DNA from: Megasphaera elsdenii DSM 20460
GTDB taxonomy: Bacteria; Bacillota; Negativicutes; Veillonellales; Megasphaeraceae
Direction of reading: 5' to 3'
Length of the DNA stretch: 32,000 bases
NCBI RefSeq assembly: GCF_003010495.1
Contig: NZ_CP027570.1
Coordinates: 2,130,001 to 2,162,000, forward strand
Each line of letters opens with the position of its first letter. Within the stretch, counting starts at the first letter, position 1. The position numbers and the translations under genes are program-made. Below the pieces are notes generated by a model, which searched no databases, was not told the origin of the DNA, and saw only the letters and a program-made list of their open reading frames with translations. Positions 8,016 through 20,274 of this stretch are shown one piece after another.

Positions 8016-9579
8016 GAACTCCTTTTTACGGGGCGCCATGGTCCTCACCATGGCCGGTATCGTCGTCAAGATCTTAGGCGGGCTGAACCGTATTTTATTG
8101 TCGCGCCTCTTGGGCGGCGAGGGCATCGGCCTCTATCAGATGGCTTATCCTGTCTATATCCTGCTTTTGAGCATCATCGGCGCAGGGATTCCCATTGCCG
8201 TGTCCATCATGATCGCTGAAGAAGCGGCCAAAGGCCATTACAGTGGCGTCCGCCGTATCTTCCATGTGACCCTGGCCTTTATGACTGTCGTTGCTGTCGT
8301 TTGCGGCTTGGCCCTGCCTTTTGGCGCCCATGGCCTGGTCGAAGTGGGCATCGTCCGTGATGGCCGGGCCTTCCCGGCCCTGGCCGTGTTGGCACCGGCT
8401 TTGACTTTATCCGTCATAGCCTGCTGCTTCCGCGGTTATTTCCAGGGTCTGCAGCTCATGACGCCGACCGCCTTGTCCCAGATGGCGGATCAATTCGTCC
8501 GGGTTTGCACCATGCTCGTTTTGGCCTGGCTCCTGCTGCCGAAGGGGCTGGAGTGGGCCGCAGCCGGTGCGGCCTTTGGTGCCATCCCCGGGGCGGCTGC
8601 CGGGCTGCTGCTCATCACCTTCTTATATTACCGCTACAGCCGCCAGCCTATGCCCGAAGATGACGGCGTCTTCCGCGTCCAGTCGCCACGGCGCATCATC
8701 CGCCGGCTCATTGTCCTGGCCGTGCCCGTGGCGGCAGCCAATATGCTCCTGCCGGCCGTGGCCAGCATCGACTTGTTCATCGTGCCCTTGCGCCTGGAAG
8801 CGGCTGGCTACAGTACGCATGAAGCGACGGCCCTCTATGGCTACCTGACGGGTATGGCCAACGGCCTGGTCCAGCTGCCGGCCATCTTGACCATCGCCTT
8901 GGCGACGAGCCTCGTCCCGGCCGTATCGGCGGCTTTTTCCCGTCATGACCGGGACGTCATCCTCGACCGGACCGACACGGCTATGCGCATTGCCAACGTC
9001 ATCACCGTACCGGCCTGCCTGGGCCTGGCCGTCCTGGCCGTGCCCATTTCCCGGCTCCTCTACGCGACGCCGGCAGCGGGACCGGCTATCTGCGTCCTGT
9101 CCATTTCCGTCTTCCTCGTCGGTCTCCAGCAGATTACCAGCGGCCTCCTGCAGGGCATGGGCCATACGGCGGTCCCCCTGTACAATATGGCTGCTGCAGC
9201 CGTTGTCAAAATCGTCCTCAGCTGGCATCTGACGGCCATTCCCTGGCTGGGTGAAGTCGGCGCCGCCTGGGCGACCAATGCCGACCTGGCTGTCGCGACG
9301 GCGCTCAACTTGTACTTTGCCCATAAATACATCGCCTACCGCGTCCAATGGCGCTACGTGGGTAAACTCTTCCTGGCCGGTGCCGCCATGGCCGGTACGG
9401 CCTGGCTCGTCCATCACGCCCTGATCGTCCTCTTCGGCAACGCCGCAGCCACCCTCATCGCCATGATGGCCGCCGCCCTGGTCTACCTCATAGGCCTCAT
9501 CGTCTTCCGGGCCCTGACCGTCGAAGACATCGAAAAGATTCCCGTCATCGGGAAAAAAGTGAGCCGGCGGATACCTTGA
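8008..9579 (+). CDS. MOP-superfamily polysaccharide/lipid II flippase (SpoVB/YabM/MurJ-like)
   Basis: The 523 aa polytopic membrane protein starts MSKNSFLRGAMVLTMAGIVVKILGGLNRILLSRLLGGEGIGLYQMAYPVY, typical of SpoVB/MurJ-like proteins. The TTG start at 8008 has an AAAGGGG SD 7 nt upstream and overlaps the mfd stop by 8 nt. Its position after mfd matches Firmicute synteny. Confidence 0.88.
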   Translation: MSKNSFLRGAMVLTMAGIVVKILGGLNRILLSRLLGGEGIGLYQMAYPVYILLLSIIGAGIPIAVSIMIAEEAAKGHYSGVRRIFHVTLAFMTVVAVVCGLALPFGAHGLVEVGIVRDGRAFPALAVLAPALTLSVIACCFRGYFQGLQLMTPTALSQMADQFVRVCTMLVLAWLLLPKGLEWAAAGAAFGAIPGAAAGLLLITFLYYRYSRQPMPEDDGVFRVQSPRRIIRRLIVLAVPVAAANMLLPAVASIDLFIVPLRLEAAGYSTHEATALYGYLTGMANGLVQLPAILTIALATSLVPAVSAAFSRHDRDVILDRTDTAMRIANVITVPACLGLAVLAVPISRLLYATPAAGPAICVLSISVFLVGLQQITSGLLQGMGHTAVPLYNMAAAAVVKIVLSWHLTAIPWLGEVGAAWATNADLAVATALNLYFAHKYIAYRVQWRYVGKLFLAGAAMAGTAWLVHHALIVLFGNAAATLIAMMAAALVYLIGLIVFRALTVEDIEKIPVIGKKVSRRIP

Positions 9580-15262: not shown

Positions 15263-15294
15263 GTTCATGGTTCGTGGCTCTCCTTATTACTCCA

Positions 15295-15328
15295 AAGGAG
15301 GTTGTCTTAATACGACAGCCTCCTTTTT
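15295..15328 (+). terminator. Intrinsic terminator of the RND operon
   Basis: AAGGAGGTTGTC (15295-15306), loop TTAATAC, GACAGCCTCCTT (15314-15325); the T run (15324-15328) overlaps the last two stem positions. The stem is 12 bp with one U-G pair. Confidence 0.8.
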
Positions 15329-15363: not shown

Positions 15364-15385
15364 TATGTGATAAGCATTTCACATA
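15364..15385. promoter_or_regulatory. 22 bp palindrome overlapping the -35 of the flavodoxin operon promoter
   Basis: The sequence is TATGTGA-taagcatt-TCACATA, with 7 bp arms. It has TGTGA/TCACA half sites like CRP/FNR-family boxes, but with an 8 nt rather than 6 nt spacer. Confidence 0.45.
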
Positions 15386-15406
15386 ACAGAAAATGGAAGG
15401 TATACT
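15378..15406 (+). promoter_or_regulatory. Candidate promoter of the flavodoxin-AKR-polyferredoxin operon
   Basis: TTCACA (15378-15383), a 17 nt spacer, then TATACT (15401-15406), in an AT-rich intergenic region downstream of the RND terminator. Confidence 0.55.
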
Positions 15407-15470: not shown

Positions 15471-16211
15471 ATGAGGAAGAAAGTATTAGGTCTTGCTTGT
15501 GCCATGATGATGACGGCGTTCCTGACGGCTTGCGGTATCAGTGATATTACGGGTAAGTCAAGTTCATCTGGTAATCTGAGTCAGAAAAAGCTCACGAATC
15601 CGACCGTATCTGCGTCGGTAGTCCATCACCCCCAGGGAAACCCGCATAAGATTCTCATTGCCTATTTTACGTATCCGGAAAATACGGATGCCAAGGCCAT
15701 TCATTCGGATAAGTACGACGTCATGAGTTCAGCCAGCCTGAAAGTCAAGGATGGCGTCGCTGTTGGCAATAATACGGTTATTGCTGATTATATCGCCAAC
15801 CAGACTGGCGGCGATTTATTCTCTATCCTGACGGAAAATCCCTATCCGACGAGTTATGAAGAAACTGTCGACCAAGGCAAGGCGGAAATTCAGAATCAGG
15901 AACTGCCTGCTTTGAAGAGTCATGTCGATGACCTCAGCGGCTACGATACGATTATCTTAGTTTATCCAAACTGGTGGAGCACCTTGCCAGCGCCGGTACA
16001 GTCGTTCCTGAAGGAAACGGATATGTCAGGAAAACAGGTCTACGCTATCGTCACATCCGGTGGCAGTGGGTTCTCCGACACCATCCAGAACATCCAGCAG
16101 ACTGAACCGGGGGCTTCGGTCCACGAAGGATTTGCCCTGCATCATAAGGACATGGATAAAGCTGAAGAAATGACCCAGCATTGGCTGAATCAAATGGGGT
16201 TCACACAGTAA
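15471..16211 (+). CDS. Flavodoxin-fold lipoprotein (Flavodoxin_4-like), paralogue 1
   Basis: The product starts MRKKVLGLACAMMMTAFLTACG (lipobox L-T-A-C) and contains ILIAYFTYPENTD, YDTIILVYPNWWSTLPAPVQSFL and GKQVYAIVTSGGSGF. I preferred the ATG at 15471 (AAAGGAG SD 9 nt upstream) over the ATG at 15462, which abuts the SD. Confidence 0.85.
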   Translation: MRKKVLGLACAMMMTAFLTACGISDITGKSSSSGNLSQKKLTNPTVSASVVHHPQGNPHKILIAYFTYPENTDAKAIHSDKYDVMSSASLKVKDGVAVGNNTVIADYIANQTGGDLFSILTENPYPTSYEETVDQGKAEIQNQELPALKSHVDDLSGYDTIILVYPNWWSTLPAPVQSFLKETDMSGKQVYAIVTSGGSGFSDTIQNIQQTEPGASVHEGFALHHKDMDKAEEMTQHWLNQMGFTQ

Positions 16212-16230
16212 GTAAAATGGAGGGATTCTT

Positions 16231-16956
16231 ATGAAATTGGTAAAAATCATGCGAGTTGTTTTCTTAGGGGCGGCTATGTTCCTGCTGACGGCCTGCGGCG
16301 AAACGGGAACTTCCGTGCAGAGCACGTCGGAAAATACAGCGTCGGCACCGGCTTCCGGCGTCTATGTGCCCAATCAGACGGGCAAGCCTATGTCGGAAGA
16401 CATCAAAGATGAATTGGAAAGCAAACATAAACAGGAAGCAGCTGCCATCAAGACCATCCAGGAAGAACCGAAGGGCAGCCATAAAGGCCAGCGCATCCTT
16501 ATCGCCTATTTCACCTGGGGCGGCCGGTCTGGTGAAGTGGCCCATATGATACAGGACAAAATCGGCGGTGACCTCTATGAAATCAAGCGCGACCCCGATT
16601 ACTCCCGCGATTACTCGACGGTCCTCAAAGAATCGGCGCAGGAAGTTGATGAAAATGTCCATCCCCAATTAGCCGGCACACAGCCCGACCTGTCGCAGTA
16701 CGATGTCATCGTCCTCGGCTATCCCTGCTGGTGGTTCACGGCGCCCATGACCATTCCGTCGTTCCTGGAAGGGAAAGATTTGGCAGGGAAACTCATCGTG
16801 CCCTACATGTGTTCCTATAGCAGCCCCTTTGAAGTCACCTTGCCGGCTCTGGCTGCCGCAGCTCCCGGTGCCCGCCTCTTTACGGGTCTGACCCTGGATA
16901 AAGATACGGATTACAGCGTCATCGATCCCTGGCTGGATAAGGCCGGATTGTTATAA
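16231..16956 (+). CDS. Flavodoxin-fold lipoprotein (Flavodoxin_4-like), paralogue 2
   Basis: The product starts MKLVKIMRVVFLGAAMFLLTACG (lipobox L-T-A-C) and contains ILIAYFTWGGRSGEVA, YDVIVLGYPCWWFTAPMTIPSFL and GKLIVPYMC. A GGAGGG SD lies 6 nt upstream. Confidence 0.85.
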   Translation: MKLVKIMRVVFLGAAMFLLTACGETGTSVQSTSENTASAPASGVYVPNQTGKPMSEDIKDELESKHKQEAAAIKTIQEEPKGSHKGQRILIAYFTWGGRSGEVAHMIQDKIGGDLYEIKRDPDYSRDYSTVLKESAQEVDENVHPQLAGTQPDLSQYDVIVLGYPCWWFTAPMTIPSFLEGKDLAGKLIVPYMCSYSSPFEVTLPALAAAAPGARLFTGLTLDKDTDYSVIDPWLDKAGLL

Positions 16957-16972
16957 GACAGGAGGAAGTAGG

Positions 16973-18358
16973 ATGAGTCACGATATCAGCCGGCGGACTT
17001 TTTTGAAGCTCCTCGGCGGGGGACTGGCTGGGGCAGCTGCTGGCGGGGCTTTGGTGAAGCGCGAGGATATCCTGGCTTTTCTCGATGCCGATAAGGCTGC
17101 CGGGGCAGCCGGAACGGCCTTGGGAAAAGTCACGACGCGCTACTATAAGCCCCTCGGGAAAGACTTGTCTCTCCTGGGCTTTGGCTGCATGCGCCTGCCG
17201 ACGACCTTTACAGCGTCGGGCCGGGAAATAGATAAGGAATTAGGCGAGAAGATGGTCGATTTTGCCTATCGCCACGGCATCAATTATTTTGATACGGCCT
17301 GGTTCTACCACGACGGGAAGTCCGAAGCCTTCATCGGCCAGGCCTTGCAGAAATATCCCCGCGACACAGTCTATCTGGCCGACAAGATGCCGACGCCCAT
17401 CTTGACGGGACTCGATCAGGCAAAGGATATCTTCCAGACCCAGCTCGACCGCTGCCAAGTTGCGTATTTCGACAACTACATGCTTCATTCCCTGACCAGT
17501 CAGGACCAGTTCGATGAACTTTACATCCAAGACGGCATCCTGGACTACCTTCGCCAGGAAAAAGCCCGGGGCCGCATCCGTTGCCTGGGCTTTTCCTTCC
17601 ACGGTGACGTGCCCTTCTTTCATTATCTCCTGGACCAGTATGATTGGGATTTCTGCATGATCCAGCTCAACTATGCCGACTGGAACGAACCGGGCGAAGC
17701 GCCGGCAGGGAGCCGCCAGGCCGGGGACCTGTACCGCAAGTGCCGAGAAAAGGATGTCCCCATTTTCGTCATGGAACCGGTCAAAGGGGGCAACCTGGCC
17801 AATCTGTCATCGTCGGCAGAAGCCATCTTGAAGCAGCAGCGGCCAGAGGCCAGCATGGCGTCGTGGGCCCTGCGCTGGGTCGGCTCTAAAGAAGGGGTCA
17901 TCACCATGAATTCAGGCATGAGCAATTTGGAACAGGTCCTGGACAATATCCGGACCCTGAGCAATTTTCAGCCCTTATCGGCCGCCGAAGAGCGGGCTAT
18001 CCAGCGCTCCCTGGGGAAGGAAGCCGGCAGCGGGGCCATTCCCTGTACCTATTGCCGTTACTGTGAACCCTGCCCCTACGGTGTCGACATCGCCGGAGTC
18101 TTTCATATCTACAACCGTTATGGCGAACCGGCCGGAATCGACGTGGACCATCCCCAAGGGGCCTCGGCAGCACAGGAGAAAGTCTTCCTGGCCCATTATC
18201 AGAATAACCTGGAACGGCCGCAGCGCGCTTCCCACTGTACAGCCTGCGGCCGCTGTCTGCCCAAGTGTCCGCAGCATATCGACATCCCTAAGTACGTGCG
18301 GGCCATTGATGATGTTGTCCAATATTTCGGGCGCGATACAGGAAAGGGGATAGTGTAA
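16973..18358 (+). CDS. Aldo/keto reductase with a C-terminal Fe-S domain and an N-terminal twin-arginine signal
   Basis: The N-terminus MSHDISRRTFLKLLGGGLAGAAAGGA matches the Tat consensus S-R-R-x-F-L-K plus an h-region. AKR tetrad contexts are present: YFDTAWFYHDG (Asp, Tyr), YLADKM (Lys) and YMLHS (His). The C-terminus has CTYCRYCEPCP (CX2CX2CX2CP) and CTACGRCLPKCP (CX2CX2CX3CP). A GGAGGA SD lies 6 nt upstream. Confidence 0.9.
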   Translation: MSHDISRRTFLKLLGGGLAGAAAGGALVKREDILAFLDADKAAGAAGTALGKVTTRYYKPLGKDLSLLGFGCMRLPTTFTASGREIDKELGEKMVDFAYRHGINYFDTAWFYHDGKSEAFIGQALQKYPRDTVYLADKMPTPILTGLDQAKDIFQTQLDRCQVAYFDNYMLHSLTSQDQFDELYIQDGILDYLRQEKARGRIRCLGFSFHGDVPFFHYLLDQYDWDFCMIQLNYADWNEPGEAPAGSRQAGDLYRKCREKDVPIFVMEPVKGGNLANLSSSAEAILKQQRPEASMASWALRWVGSKEGVITMNSGMSNLEQVLDNIRTLSNFQPLSAAEERAIQRSLGKEAGSGAIPCTYCRYCEPCPYGVDIAGVFHIYNRYGEPAGIDVDHPQGASAAQEKVFLAHYQNNLERPQRASHCTACGRCLPKCPQHIDIPKYVRAIDDVVQYFGRDTGKGIV

Positions 18359-19816
18359 ATGCGGAACATGCTGCAACGGGGACGCATCGTTTTATCGTGG
18401 CTCCTGATGGGGGCCATGGTCCTGACCTTTGCTGGTATCGTAGCACCCGTGCTGCCGCAATGGCAGGTCCTGCCGGCTCTCTTGGCTGGGAATCTCCTGG
18501 TCATCGCCGTCATCATCGTCCTGACCCTGCTCCTGGGACGGATCTATTGCAGCGTCCTCTGTCCCTTGGGAATCAGCCAGGACTTCGTCTTCTGGCTGGC
18601 CAAACGGCGCAAAAAGAATCGCCGGAAATTTACTTTCCGGCGGGAACGGCGCATCGTGCGCTATAGTATCTTGATGTTGACCGGTCTGGCTTTCCTGGCC
18701 GGCTTGTCTGGTTTTGTGGGGCTGGTCGACCCGTACAGTATCTTTGGCCGCATCGTCCACGATGGACTGGGCCTGCCAGTTGCCTATGGCTGGAACGCTT
18801 TGGTCGGGGTCAACGAAAGCCACGGCTGGATTCCGGTGCTGAGCAAGACGGATATCCTCTGGCCGCCGCTGGCTGCCATGGCCCTGGCCGGGGTTTATTT
18901 CGTCGTCCTGACTGTCCTGGCCTGGCGCTATGGCCGAGCGTACTGCCATACTGTTTGCCCTGTCGGCACGCTGTTGGGAACCCTCAGCCGCTTCAGCCTG
19001 TTCCGGCCGGTCATCGACGGATCGCGCTGCACCCACTGCGGGGCCTGTGAAAAGACGTGCCGTTCGTCCTGCATCGACGTCGCCCATGGCTTCGTCGATA
19101 CCAGCCGCTGCGTCGACTGCTTCGACTGCGTTGCCGTCTGTCCGAAAGGGGCCTTAACCTTTTCCCGGACCCTTCCGGTCAAGCTTCCGGAAAAAAAGCT
19201 ATCTGGTGAAGGTATCAGCCGACGGGAGATGCTGCTGACGACGGCCGTTGCCGCCGGGACCATCGCCGCAGGTCTGGCCCGCAGCCAGACCGTTGTTCCA
19301 GCCTTGATGGGGACGGGGAAGGGGAAGAAGAAAATCTTGCCGCCTGGGGCCGTTTCAGCCGATGCTTTTGCTCAGCGCTGTACGGCCTGCCATCTCTGTG
19401 TCAGCCGCTGTCCCAGCGGCGTCCTGGTGCCGGCCGTCTTGGAGAACGGCGCCTTGCAGATGGGCCAGCCCTACATGGATTTTTCTAAAGGCTACTGTGT
19501 CTATAACTGCAACTTTTGTTCTCAAGCCTGCCCGGCCGGTGCCATCCGTCCGCTGGAGCTGGCCGTGAAAGAAAAGACAAAAATCGGCATCGCCCGTTAT
19601 GCCCAATTCCACTGTCTCATCGCCCGCGACGGCATAGTCTGCGGTAACTGTGCCCGCCATTGTCCCGTCCAGGCCATTACCCTGGTCGAGAACAAGGACG
19701 GGCGCAGCTACCCGCACGTCGATGGGGCGCGCTGTATCGGCTGCGGTTCCTGCGAGTATCACTGTCCGGCCAAACCGGCAGCTATTTCCGTCAGCACCTT
19801 GCCGAAATCTTCGTGA
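18359..19816 (+). CDS. Membrane polyferredoxin: NapH/MauN-like 4-TM module fused to a NapG/MauM-like module through an RR-preceded fifth TM segment
   Basis: Four hydrophobic segments are present, with CSVLCP (aa 64-69) and CHTVCP (aa 196-201) CX3CP motifs. Next come CTHCGACEKTC and CVDCFDCVAVCP. Then SRREMLLTTAVAAGTIAAGLA (aa 287-307) and ILPPGA. These are followed by CTACHLCVSRCP, CNFCSQACP, CGNCARHCP and CIGCGSCEYHCP. The ATG immediately follows the AKR stop. Confidence 0.85.
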   Translation: MRNMLQRGRIVLSWLLMGAMVLTFAGIVAPVLPQWQVLPALLAGNLLVIAVIIVLTLLLGRIYCSVLCPLGISQDFVFWLAKRRKKNRRKFTFRRERRIVRYSILMLTGLAFLAGLSGFVGLVDPYSIFGRIVHDGLGLPVAYGWNALVGVNESHGWIPVLSKTDILWPPLAAMALAGVYFVVLTVLAWRYGRAYCHTVCPVGTLLGTLSRFSLFRPVIDGSRCTHCGACEKTCRSSCIDVAHGFVDTSRCVDCFDCVAVCPKGALTFSRTLPVKLPEKKLSGEGISRREMLLTTAVAAGTIAAGLARSQTVVPALMGTGKGKKKILPPGAVSADAFAQRCTACHLCVSRCPSGVLVPAVLENGALQMGQPYMDFSKGYCVYNCNFCSQACPAGAIRPLELAVKEKTKIGIARYAQFHCLIARDGIVCGNCARHCPVQAITLVENKDGRSYPHVDGARCIGCGSCEYHCPAKPAAISVSTLPKSS

Positions 19817-19818
19817 CT

Positions 19819-20274
19819 TCAGTCTTCCGGGTCGGTGGCGATATCCGGTTCGTTCTTGCGGTTGAAGCCGATGATGCGGCGCGGCTTTTCAATGTCGTCG
19901 TGGCGGGGGACGGCGACGAGGAGCAGGTTGAGCTGGGAAATATGCTGGACCAGTTCGACGGCCGATCCGTCGGACAATTCGCCGTAAAAGACGATCATGT
20001 TCGGATCCCAGTAGCCGATATCCTGGATGCTGAAGGTGATATCGCCAGCTGATACCAGGCGGCCGCCGGCCTGCATGTCGTCGGGCAGGCCCGACTCAAA
20101 GTTGTTGATCAGGGCGACGATGCGCTGATACATGTCTGAGGCCAGGTAGGGCGCTTCCGGATCTTCGTCTTCTTCTGGAACGGCGCCGGGCTGGAGGATC
20201 GTCAGTTCCTTTTCGGCTTCCGCGTCTTTTTCGGGAGTTCCTTGTTGTTTTTTCTTATCCATTACGTCTGCCAT
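19819..20274 (-). CDS. Hypothetical acidic protein (151 aa)
   Basis: The ATG at 20274 has a GGAGGG SD 6 nt upstream. The composition looks coding, unlike the + strand ORF 19660..20052. I recognise no family. The stop lies 2 bp from the convergent stop at 19816. Confidence 0.7.
   Translation of the reverse strand: MADVMDKKKQQGTPEKDAEAEKELTILQPGAVPEEDEDPEAPYLASDMYQRIVALINNFESGLPDDMQAGGRLVSAGDITFSIQDIGYWDPNMIVFYGELSDGSAVELVQHISQLNLLLVAVPRHDDIEKPRRIIGFNRKNEPDIATDPED

Follow-up and report, generated by a model that had tools for sequence, protein, structure and literature searches.

The four-gene operon and its products

We analysed a 32,000-nucleotide stretch of the genome of Megasphaera elsdenii DSM 20460 (contig NZ_CP027570.1, positions 2,130,001 to 2,162,000; hereafter the window), in which four genes, g1 to g4, lie one behind another on the forward strand between positions 15471 and 19816 (Table 1). 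An initial annotation, made from the sequence alone, had read them as one operon whose products are all exported or membrane-bound, and had proposed that they form an electron chain from the membrane to a periplasmic aldo-keto reductase (AKR) with iron-sulphur (Fe-S) clusters. The gene layout is borne out: as can be seen from the list of open reading frames (ORFs), the genes are separated by 19, 16 and 0 nt, with the ATG of g4 directly abutting the TAA of g3, and independent gene calls on near-identical metagenomic contigs give the same boundaries, including the start of g1 as a protein of 246 amino acids (aa). The Shine-Dalgarno sequences claimed for each gene were found as AAGGAG 9 nt upstream of the ATG of g1, GGAGG 7 nt upstream of that of g2 and AGGAGG 7 nt upstream of that of g3, the sequence before g4 (GGAAAGGGG) being weaker. 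The operon's own promoter, which had been proposed to follow the terminator of the preceding MarR-MFP-RND operon, is likewise present as a promoter-like site, and both elements are kept in Megasphaera. The terminator hairpin (ΔG -20.3 kcal/mol, z -5.7) is retained with compensatory changes in the Megasphaera loci L006 and L090, and two Megasphaera loci besides the window share the promoter core, ATAAGCATTT[C/T]ACAT ... TATA[C/A]T. We regard this site as a putative promoter of the four genes, conserved in the genus.

Export signals and membrane topology were called from motif rules, hydropathy, conservation and AlphaFold2 secondary structure; by motif rules and hydropathy, all four products carry the export or membrane signals that had been ascribed to them. 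The AKR, g3, begins with an exact consensus for twin-arginine translocation (Tat), SRRTFLK, followed by an h-region with a Kyte-Doolittle score of 1.51. Its AlphaFold2 model is confident (mean predicted local distance difference test score, pLDDT, 88.7) except for the signal, residues 1-27, which is disordered (pLDDT below 50). The barrel matches PF00248 with 119.4 bits (cut-off 24). Residues D107, Y112, K138 and H172, which we take from known motifs to be the catalytic Asp-Tyr-Lys-His tetrad of AKRs, line up with the corresponding motifs of AKR11C1 and are invariant in an alignment of 43 sequences, in exported and cytoplasmic forms alike. In a Foldseek search with the model, the top 50 matches were all AKRs, with template modelling (TM) scores on the target of about 0.7-0.85 and only the barrel covered; the best were NAD(P)H-dependent AKRs such as 1YNP (TM 0.78). 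In the cofactor region, the motifs GFSFH, IQLNY, MEPVxGG and SGMSxxEQVxDN resemble those of AKR11 and Kv-beta, and Glu268 is invariant where Ser or Gly is usual.

The two C-terminal cysteine clusters noted earlier in g3 are CTYCRYCEPCP and CTACGRCLPKCP. This part of the protein matches Fer4_9, Fer4_8, Fer4_17 and Fer4_18, families of the Fer4 dicluster kind, and seven of its eight cysteines are invariant in the alignment of 43 relatives, the eighth (C425) being more than 90% conserved. The domain is predicted to bind two [4Fe-4S]-type clusters. Structure searches found no PDB entry that combines an AKR with an Fe-S domain.

The product of g4 has the two CX3CP motifs and the six ferredoxin-type cysteine motifs reported for it, but five transmembrane helices instead of the four first counted. 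The AlphaFold2 model (pLDDT 79.8) places helices at residues 2-25, 33-59, 98-123, 171-191 and 288-309, the last followed by a disordered linker. The lowest hydrophobicity is that of helix 5, whose Kyte-Doolittle score is 1.29; helices 1-4 score 2.1-2.9. Pfam finds Fer4_5 (1.5e-16) and five Fer4 stretches. As had been expected, the best NCBIfam matches are NapG and MauM/NapG for the C-terminal part and NapH/MauN for the N-terminal part; all of them remain below the family cut-offs (PRK09476, 1.9e-25, 89.5 against 269 bits; TIGR00397, 1.6e-23, 83.4 against 178.85 bits; TIGR02163, 2.9e-19, 69.6 against 213 bits; PRK09477, 60.7 against 234 bits). In 40 homologues every motif cysteine is invariant, those of the dicluster (C224-C238, C251-C261) included, with the exception of C435, which is more than 90% conserved, so that 15 of the 16 cysteines of the NapG-like domain are invariant. 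Conservation also exceeds 90% at R289, and an internal RR motif, or an RK or KR variant of it, was seen in all homologues inspected.

These are the features of the polytopic polyferredoxin of the delta proteobacterium MLMS-1 (Q1NSB0), in which reporter fusions showed that the fifth helix is Tat-dependent, the hand-over from Sec to Tat being signalled by the low hydrophobicity of the helix and by positive charges that follow it (Tooke et al. 2017, eLife, PMC5449189). Like g4, Q1NSB0 is a NapH-NapG fusion with five helices, a twin arginine before a weak fifth helix and positive charges downstream of it, and both proteins are predicted to place clusters on both sides of the membrane; for Q1NSB0 three cytoplasmic clusters are predicted, whereas g4 has two ferredoxin motifs plus two CX3CP motifs. 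We assign g4 to this family by its features. By analogy with NapH and with Tooke et al. 2017, the g4 dicluster is predicted to lie on the cytoplasmic side, and the C-terminal domain is predicted to be translocated by Tat, the proof by reporter fusion belonging to the MLMS-1 protein only. That study dealt with membrane insertion and named no partner enzyme or function (PMC5449189). No PDB entry with a NapH-type membrane domain was found.

Both g1 and g2 match Flavodoxin_4 (PF12682) above the Pfam cut-off of 24 bits (g1, 8.6e-20, 71.2 bits; g2, 2.5e-25, 89.2 bits) and, as annotated, carry LTAC lipoboxes, which satisfy a PROSITE PS51257-like rule at Cys21 of g1 and Cys22 of g2. Their closest NCBIfam models fall below cut-off (g1, PRK06934, 148.6 against 172 bits; g2, PRK07116, 104.1 against 198 bits). 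The n-regions have two or three K/R among the first seven residues, then a hydrophobic h-region. Because the signals are of the Sec type, with no twin arginine in either, g1 and g2 would leave the cytoplasm by Sec, unfolded and without flavin mononucleotide (FMN). The fold is that of the FMN-bound Flavodoxin_4 structures 4ICI, 4J8P and 3KLB (E values of 5e-15 to 7e-22; 7e-22 for g2 with 4ICI), and the Y-F-[ST]...G-x-[ST] phosphate loop and the P-x-W-W loop of these are kept. The solved proteins are, however, short (about 160 aa); g1 and g2 carry lipoprotein signals and linkers of 55-85 aa; the phosphate loop of g1 is interrupted by a 26-aa insert, unlike in the solved proteins, and the third loop reads CSYSSP in g2 against TSGGSG in those. 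The flavin loops thus appear only partly canonical.

Table 1. Features of the four-gene operon and of related loci. Positions are those of the window unless a locus is named.
Feature	Position	Strand	Description
Intrinsic terminator hairpin of the upstream MarR-MFP-RND operon	15294-15326	+	13-bp stem, 7-nt loop, then U run
Promoter-like site of the four-gene operon, TTCACA-17-TATACT	15378-15406	+	10/12 consensus positions
g1	15471-16211	+	246 aa; lipoprotein Flavodoxin_4, PRK06934-like, ~26-aa insert in phosphate loop
g2	16231-16956	+	241 aa; second lipoprotein Flavodoxin_4, long Ser/Thr/Glu-rich linker, divergent third loop (CSYSSP)
g3	16973-18358	+	461 aa; Fe-S AKR with Tat signal
g3, twin-arginine signal peptide, residues 1-27	16973-17053	+	SRRTFLK, Gly/Ala-rich h-region, then K28 R29
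g3, AKR (alpha/beta)8 barrel	17135-18007	+	PF00248 2.1e-34; tetrad D107, Y112, K138, H172
g3, C-terminal ferredoxin-type domain	18044-18271	+	C358/361/364/367 and C422/425/428/432
g4	18359-19816	+	485 aa; NapH-NapG-type polyferredoxin
g4, NapH-like membrane part	18359-18988	+	four helices; CX3CP motifs C64/C68, C196/C200
g4, ferredoxin dicluster, predicted cytoplasmic side	19001-19168	+	C224-C238, C251-C261
g4, internal twin-arginine motif ISRREML and fifth helix	19214-19285	+	then R308, KGKKK
g4, NapG-like domain, predicted periplasmic	19340-19792	+	four ferredoxin-type Cys motifs
tatA/tatC beside the pair	L031, L038, L044, L046, L050-L053, L057, L058, L061-L063, L065, L067, L069		
tatA/tatC beside the pair, further loci	L070, L072, L075 (10381-11326), L077, L078, L080, L081, L084		
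170-aa membrane protein	L067:4187-4705, L075:9694-10311, L077:9845-10354, ~12 more loci		
Inserted cytoplasmic flavodoxin / MerR genes	L090:6792-7172, 8033-8482; L096:6847-7227, 8088-8537; L006:5768-6328		

Conservation of the AKR-polyferredoxin pair and its neighbours

The AKR family comprises more than 7,000 clusters at E <= 1e-10 and is thus a large one. Species-representative genomes, one for each species, contain at least 595 stretches that encode an AKR relative, found among 600 pattern matches, and synteny was read from the best 80 of these, which come mostly from gut and rumen Bacteroidales and also from Selenomonas, Desulfovibrio(naceae) and others; ORFs were called in 82 loci that are not identical to the window and were searched with the window proteins. 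Relatives of about 430-505 aa have an N-terminal extension of about 60 aa, with an RR motif in nearly all of the full-length proteins, and motif and extension are conserved across 36-99% identity. In Bacteroidales orthologues a lipobox often follows the Tat h-region. The extension is entirely missing from relatives of about 390 aa, which are common.

We found that the presence of a polyferredoxin gene next to the AKR, on the same strand, follows the extension: it was seen in 65 of the 74 loci with an extended AKR and in none of the eight with a signal-less one (Fisher p = 7e-7; p = 5e-4 for the table made with a strict RR regular expression). The pairing is retained at 36-74% AKR identity, in Negativicutes, Bacteroidales, Desulfovibrionaceae and metagenome-assembled genomes (MAGs) labelled Myxococcota and Clostridia, and even in L005, though the polyferredoxin is there split into two genes. 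The conserved unit is the AKR-polyferredoxin pair and not the four genes. Of the four families, whose co-occurrence elsewhere the initial annotation had proposed to survey, these two stay together, and Flavodoxin_4 genes accompany the pair in about 7 of the 82 loci.

When the neighbouring ORFs were clustered, a single other family proved recurrent, namely TatC (Pfam 3e-65), which is present at 25 loci; in 23 of them a tatA gene lies just upstream of tatC. The tatA-tatC genes are found in Bacteroidales genomes, directly flanking the pair and nearly all on the same strand. Taken together, pairing and tatAC linkage speak strongly, if indirectly, for a dependence of the pair on Tat, and the position of tatA-tatC directly beside it suggests that it is a principal Tat client in those genomes. 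For Negativicutes, tatAC have been reported in five genomes (PMC3827258).

The same comparisons bear on the reading that the signals are non-functional, with the AKR and the flavodoxins cytoplasmic, the RR and lipobox matches due to chance and g4 a generic membrane ferredoxin. Signal-less cytoplasmic Fe-S AKRs are indeed common, but chance matches would have to account for RR motifs and extensions conserved down to 36% identity, for the lipobox that many Bacteroidales orthologues add after the Tat h-region, for a polyferredoxin neighbour that tracks the extension, for tatA-tatC genes embedded beside the pair, for a lipobox in 111 of 120 g1 relatives and for the internal RR motif, or its RK/KR variant, in every polyferredoxin inspected. 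This reading is strongly disfavoured, and we consider it highly improbable. As far as the AKR and g4 are concerned, the initial annotation withstands the comparison, because the pairing persists, the signals are conserved and tatAC are linked; the N-terminal signals that it described are kept in AKR and g1 orthologues alike.

The flavodoxins have a different distribution. Exported flavodoxins directly adjoin the pair in three loci of Megasphaera (L006, L090 and L096), in each of which g2 stays next to the AKR, in L018 (a Desulfovibrionaceae MAG), in L077 (Paraprevotella) and in L068 (labelled Clostridiaceae). Those of L068 and L077 have Sec-type signals, and that of L018 (L018:5092-5832) has a Tat signal, MTRRTWLQGAAG. 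Other Flavodoxin_4 proteins also carry twin arginines: the signal of L004:8952-9860, MNRREFLKLGSMGLMTLAFAGC, combines Tat with a lipobox, and that of L033:14883-15647 contains DRSRRFVLKG. In Selenomonas the exported flavodoxin, with Tat signal and lipobox, lies 4-5 kb off, beside DUF4405 and Flavodoxin_2 genes. Unlike g1 and g2, such Tat-signal proteins would be exported folded, with FMN. Many g1 relatives, members of a large lipoprotein subfamily, occur in islands without an AKR, together with ApbE, SLH-anchored flavodoxin fusions, DUF4405/cytochrome-b-like proteins, Fe-ADH, CMD/cupin and LysR.

The operon could therefore hold two separate co-transcribed units, namely the pair and, beside it, lipoprotein flavodoxins that work with other partners as independent extracytoplasmic flavoproteins, for instance as reductases of quinones, flavins or metals or as proteins that bind flavin. 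The scarcity of Flavodoxin_4 neighbours at AKR loci, the AKR-free islands and the distant Selenomonas gene all speak for this. On the other hand, the window flavodoxins share one putative promoter with the AKR at gaps of 16-19 nt, and exported flavodoxins recur at the pair in the six loci named above, more often than the roughly 0.5 in 80 loci to be expected for a family with a few copies per genome. This recurrence in unrelated lineages argues for a functional link, and we hold full independence to be rather unlikely. Exported flavodoxin-fold proteins are a broad class of their own that has joined the AKR module in some lineages only, and g1 and g2 are probable lineage-specific accessories of the pair, outside its universal core. 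A full-text literature search found no paper on exported flavodoxin-fold proteins as a class.

Proposed mechanism, electron flow and relation to known systems

The reading that we prefer, to which we give a probability of about 0.55, is that the pair forms a membrane-to-periplasm Fe-S conduit serving a periplasmic AKR, with the flavodoxins as lineage-specific accessories. The AKR would be exported via Tat, folded and loaded with cofactor, possibly with a bound nucleotide. Sec would insert the four NapH-like helices of g4, with two clusters staying at the cytoplasmic face, and Tat would translocate the four-cluster NapG-like domain by means of the internal twin-arginine motif and the weakly hydrophobic fifth helix. 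This domain would face the periplasm and exchange electrons with the Fe-S domain of the AKR, while the NapH-like part would link the Fe-S wire, via the cytoplasmic clusters, to quinol or to a flavodoxin or ferredoxin of low potential in the cytoplasm; the acceptor may be a periplasmic carbonyl- or quinone-type compound. A possible cytoplasmic donor is encoded by the cytoplasmic-type flavodoxin gene in the operon of L006, L090 and L096. For the step from one-electron clusters to a hydride-type site, the candidates are bound NADP(H), a flavin in the phosphate site of the barrel, a flavodoxin adaptor or direct cluster-to-substrate chemistry, and g1 and g2 could either provide a flavin-based one-to-two-electron adaptor or serve as side acceptors.

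Several points weigh against this proposal. The position of the AKR and of the C-terminal half of g4 outside the cytoplasm is a prediction. In nine loci no polyferredoxin lies within 3 kb of the Tat-type AKR, most AKR loci are without a flavodoxin, no flavin domain is evident in the g3 AKR, and neither tat nor menaquinone genes occur in the 32-kb window. While [4Fe-4S] clusters give single electrons, an AKR works by transferring hydride from NAD(P)H. To our knowledge NapH-type helices hold no redox cofactor that could carry electrons through the membrane. As estimated from standard potentials, menaquinol is a poor donor for the reduction of ordinary aldehydes and ketones, and L-galactose dehydrogenases, which oxidise an aldose, are the second- and third-best PDB profile matches of g3; both of these favour the opposite direction of flow.

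In that direction, the exported AKR would be a periplasmic dehydrogenase of aldoses, alcohols or aldehydes that passes electrons via the polyferredoxin to the menaquinone pool, and in Bacteroidales or Selenomonas it would support fumarate respiration. The AKR superfamily does contain aldose dehydrogenases, a Tat-type AKR is flanked by carbohydrate genes in L086, thermodynamics are estimated to favour flow from a low-potential donor to menaquinone, and the periplasmic polyferredoxins of the hydrogenase-2 and formate dehydrogenase systems act in the donor-to-quinone direction. Nevertheless, only one locus offers the carbohydrate context, the gap between two-electron and one-electron chemistry weighs on this direction too, a cytoplasmic flavodoxin gene in three Megasphaera relatives better fits a low-potential donor in the cytoplasm, and characterised NapGH acts from quinol outwards (PMC5449189, PMC8238504). 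We find the dehydrogenase unlikely, though its thermodynamics make it a rival to be taken seriously. Because of the known direction of NapGH and the flavodoxin gene in the three Megasphaera operons, we favour outward flow, that is, a reductase, at odds of about three to two.

Precedents for export of a cofactor-loaded oxidoreductase exist: the glucose-fructose oxidoreductase of Zymomonas is Tat-exported with bound NADP. The aldehyde oxidoreductase PaoABC of E. coli (PMC4273604) is likewise a Tat-exported periplasmic enzyme with pre-bound cofactors. The two enzymes are precedents for Tat export of a nicotinamide- or Fe-S-loaded oxidoreductase and for aldehyde handling in the periplasm, but their folds (GFO/IDH/MocA and molybdo-flavo-Fe-S, respectively) are unlike that of g3, and neither is known to have a NapGH-type membrane partner.

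Among the closest relatives of the conduit are NapGH of E. coli and Wolinella, and MauMN. As in g4, NapH has four helices, two CX3CP motifs and two ferredoxin cysteine clusters, and NapG, like the C-terminal part of g4, is Tat-targeted with four ferredoxin-type clusters. In contrast to these systems, g4 is a single fused polypeptide, scores far below the family cut-offs, has no nap or mau gene in the window and is partnered by an Fe-S AKR and not by NapAB/NapC. NapH-like proteins (NosR, PceC and others) have been described as a modular link between membrane or cytosolic electron pools and extracytosolic oxidoreductases (Meheust et al. 2021, PMC8238504). The systems of that study are defined by an ApbE-flavinylated FMN-binding domain, whereas here a NapG-type polyferredoxin would be the periplasmic relay and the window has no ApbE or FMN_bind gene; AKRs occur nowhere in its text (PMC8238504). 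The AKR itself resembles the COG1453/K07079 proteins ('predicted aldo/keto reductase-like oxidoreductase'), which have an AKR barrel and an eight-cysteine C-terminal domain as g3 does; relative to the signal-less members, g3 adds the Tat signal and a dedicated polyferredoxin partner. We found only list-type mentions of COG1453 or K07079 in the literature.

The initial annotation knew of no characterised system of this composition. A full-text literature search found no paper describing a module of Tat-exported Fe-S AKR and polyferredoxin, though g4 taken alone belongs to a described family. Already known, then, are the g4 family, the modularity of NapH-like proteins and the annotated Fe-S AKR family (COG1453, K07079); new are the specific and widespread coupling of a Tat-exported Fe-S AKR to a polyferredoxin, and its extension by lipoprotein flavodoxins in Megasphaera.

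In textbooks, AKRs are cytoplasmic and depend on NAD(P)H. A Tat-exported AKR that has its own Fe-S wire and a dedicated membrane polyferredoxin implies that AKR chemistry outside the cytoplasm is powered in a different way. Tentatively, and at somewhat less than even odds, we suggest that the pair is a new class of extracytoplasmic oxidoreductase in anaerobes, an AKR barrel that an Fe-S wire from the membrane or cytoplasm would drive in place of free NAD(P)H. The pair is a strong candidate for a redox activity that gut microbiota carry out in the periplasm and that has gone unrecognised, with respiration on carbonyl, quinone or sugar compounds, their detoxification or energy gain from them as possible roles. 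If this holds, the pair would represent a new type of terminal enzyme for anaerobic respiration or periplasmic detoxification, the NapH cytoplasmic clusters would be an entry point for low-potential cytoplasmic electrons, the embedded tatA-tatC genes would reflect the importance of the pair in gut Bacteroidales, and the lipoprotein flavodoxins would be an undescribed class of exported flavodoxin-fold proteins. The pair also offers a tractable system for the role of NapH-type cytoplasmic clusters and for the passage of electrons through cofactor-poor membrane domains, and the lipoprotein and Tat-signal flavodoxins raise the question of how and why flavodoxin folds work outside the cytoplasm.

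Variant loci, related islands and flanking features

The closest genome match to the window is Megasphaera sp. WILCCON 0056 (AKR identity 94%). In other Megasphaera the operon varies. A cytoplasmic-type flavodoxin of 149 aa lies inside it in L006, L090 and L096, and a MerR-family regulator is also inserted in L090 and L096; the window has neither. The layout of L006 adds the cytoplasmic-type flavodoxin, that of L090 is g1, MerR, g2, cytoplasmic flavodoxin, AKR, polyferredoxin, and that of M. hexanoica is MerR, g2, cytoplasmic flavodoxin, AKR, polyferredoxin, without g1.

In many Bacteroidales loci a conserved polytopic membrane protein of 170 aa is encoded between the AKR and tatA; its sole match is a sub-threshold one to an ECF S-component (3.5e-5). 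Around the Tat-type AKRs that lack an adjoining polyferredoxin, some of which lie at contig ends, no alternative partner emerged. In some of these AKRs the C-terminus is extended by a further domain of about 150 aa, a feature of some Bacteroidales Tat-AKRs of about 610 aa (L015:7992-9821, L025:7992-9836). In L086 (4395-10527) a Bacteroidales Tat-type Fe-S AKR, with no polyferredoxin adjacent, is flanked by a GH31 glycosidase on one side and a 729-aa aldose epimerase on the other, which hints that its substrate in that lineage is a carbohydrate. The gene context of the signal-less AKRs is heterogeneous and gave no clue to a substrate.

Relatives of g4 at about 41% identity, with thousands of member sequences, are very abundant in gut metagenomes. 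In place of an AKR, their partner is a DUF362 protein starting MDRRDFLK (L097:968-3448, L098:5038-7518), which would be a second Tat client of the same polyferredoxin conduit. This pairing agrees with the view that NapH-like proteins are transmembrane electron-transfer units which can be exchanged between various extracytosolic oxidoreductases (Meheust et al. 2021).

A Firmicute island, L092:1-12774 (also L093 and L094), is rich in exported Flavodoxin_4 proteins, among them lipoproteins, SLH-anchored forms and Cyclophil_like fusions, and holds genes for ApbE, NusG_II, Hpre_diP_synt_I, RibD_C, a DUF4405/cytochrome-b-like protein, Fe-ADH, CMD/cupin and LysR. The island has the look of a redox system outside the cytoplasm that is based on flavins, and we found no paper describing an island of this type.

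In the window, the neighbouring MarR-RND operon had been taken as a sign of a xenobiotic-handling locus; since the adjacency is conserved only within Megasphaera, it is weak functional evidence and we do not follow this argument. A perfect inverted repeat, TATGTGA-N8-TCACATA (7+7, positions 15364-15385), overlaps the -35 hexamer of the putative promoter. It is present only in same-species contigs, and we do not claim it as an operator because its left arm is not conserved in the other Megasphaera loci. A search for riboswitches and other RNA elements gave no Rfam match at gathering score anywhere in the window, and a candidate RsaE in the 5' region of the operon (E 0.19) was at chance level. 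The remaining genes of the window are housekeeping genes. Downstream, a convergent DUF6173 gene (19819-20274, reverse strand) has its stop codon 2 nt from that of g4; no terminator separates the two genes at 19814-19821, and their transcripts probably overlap.

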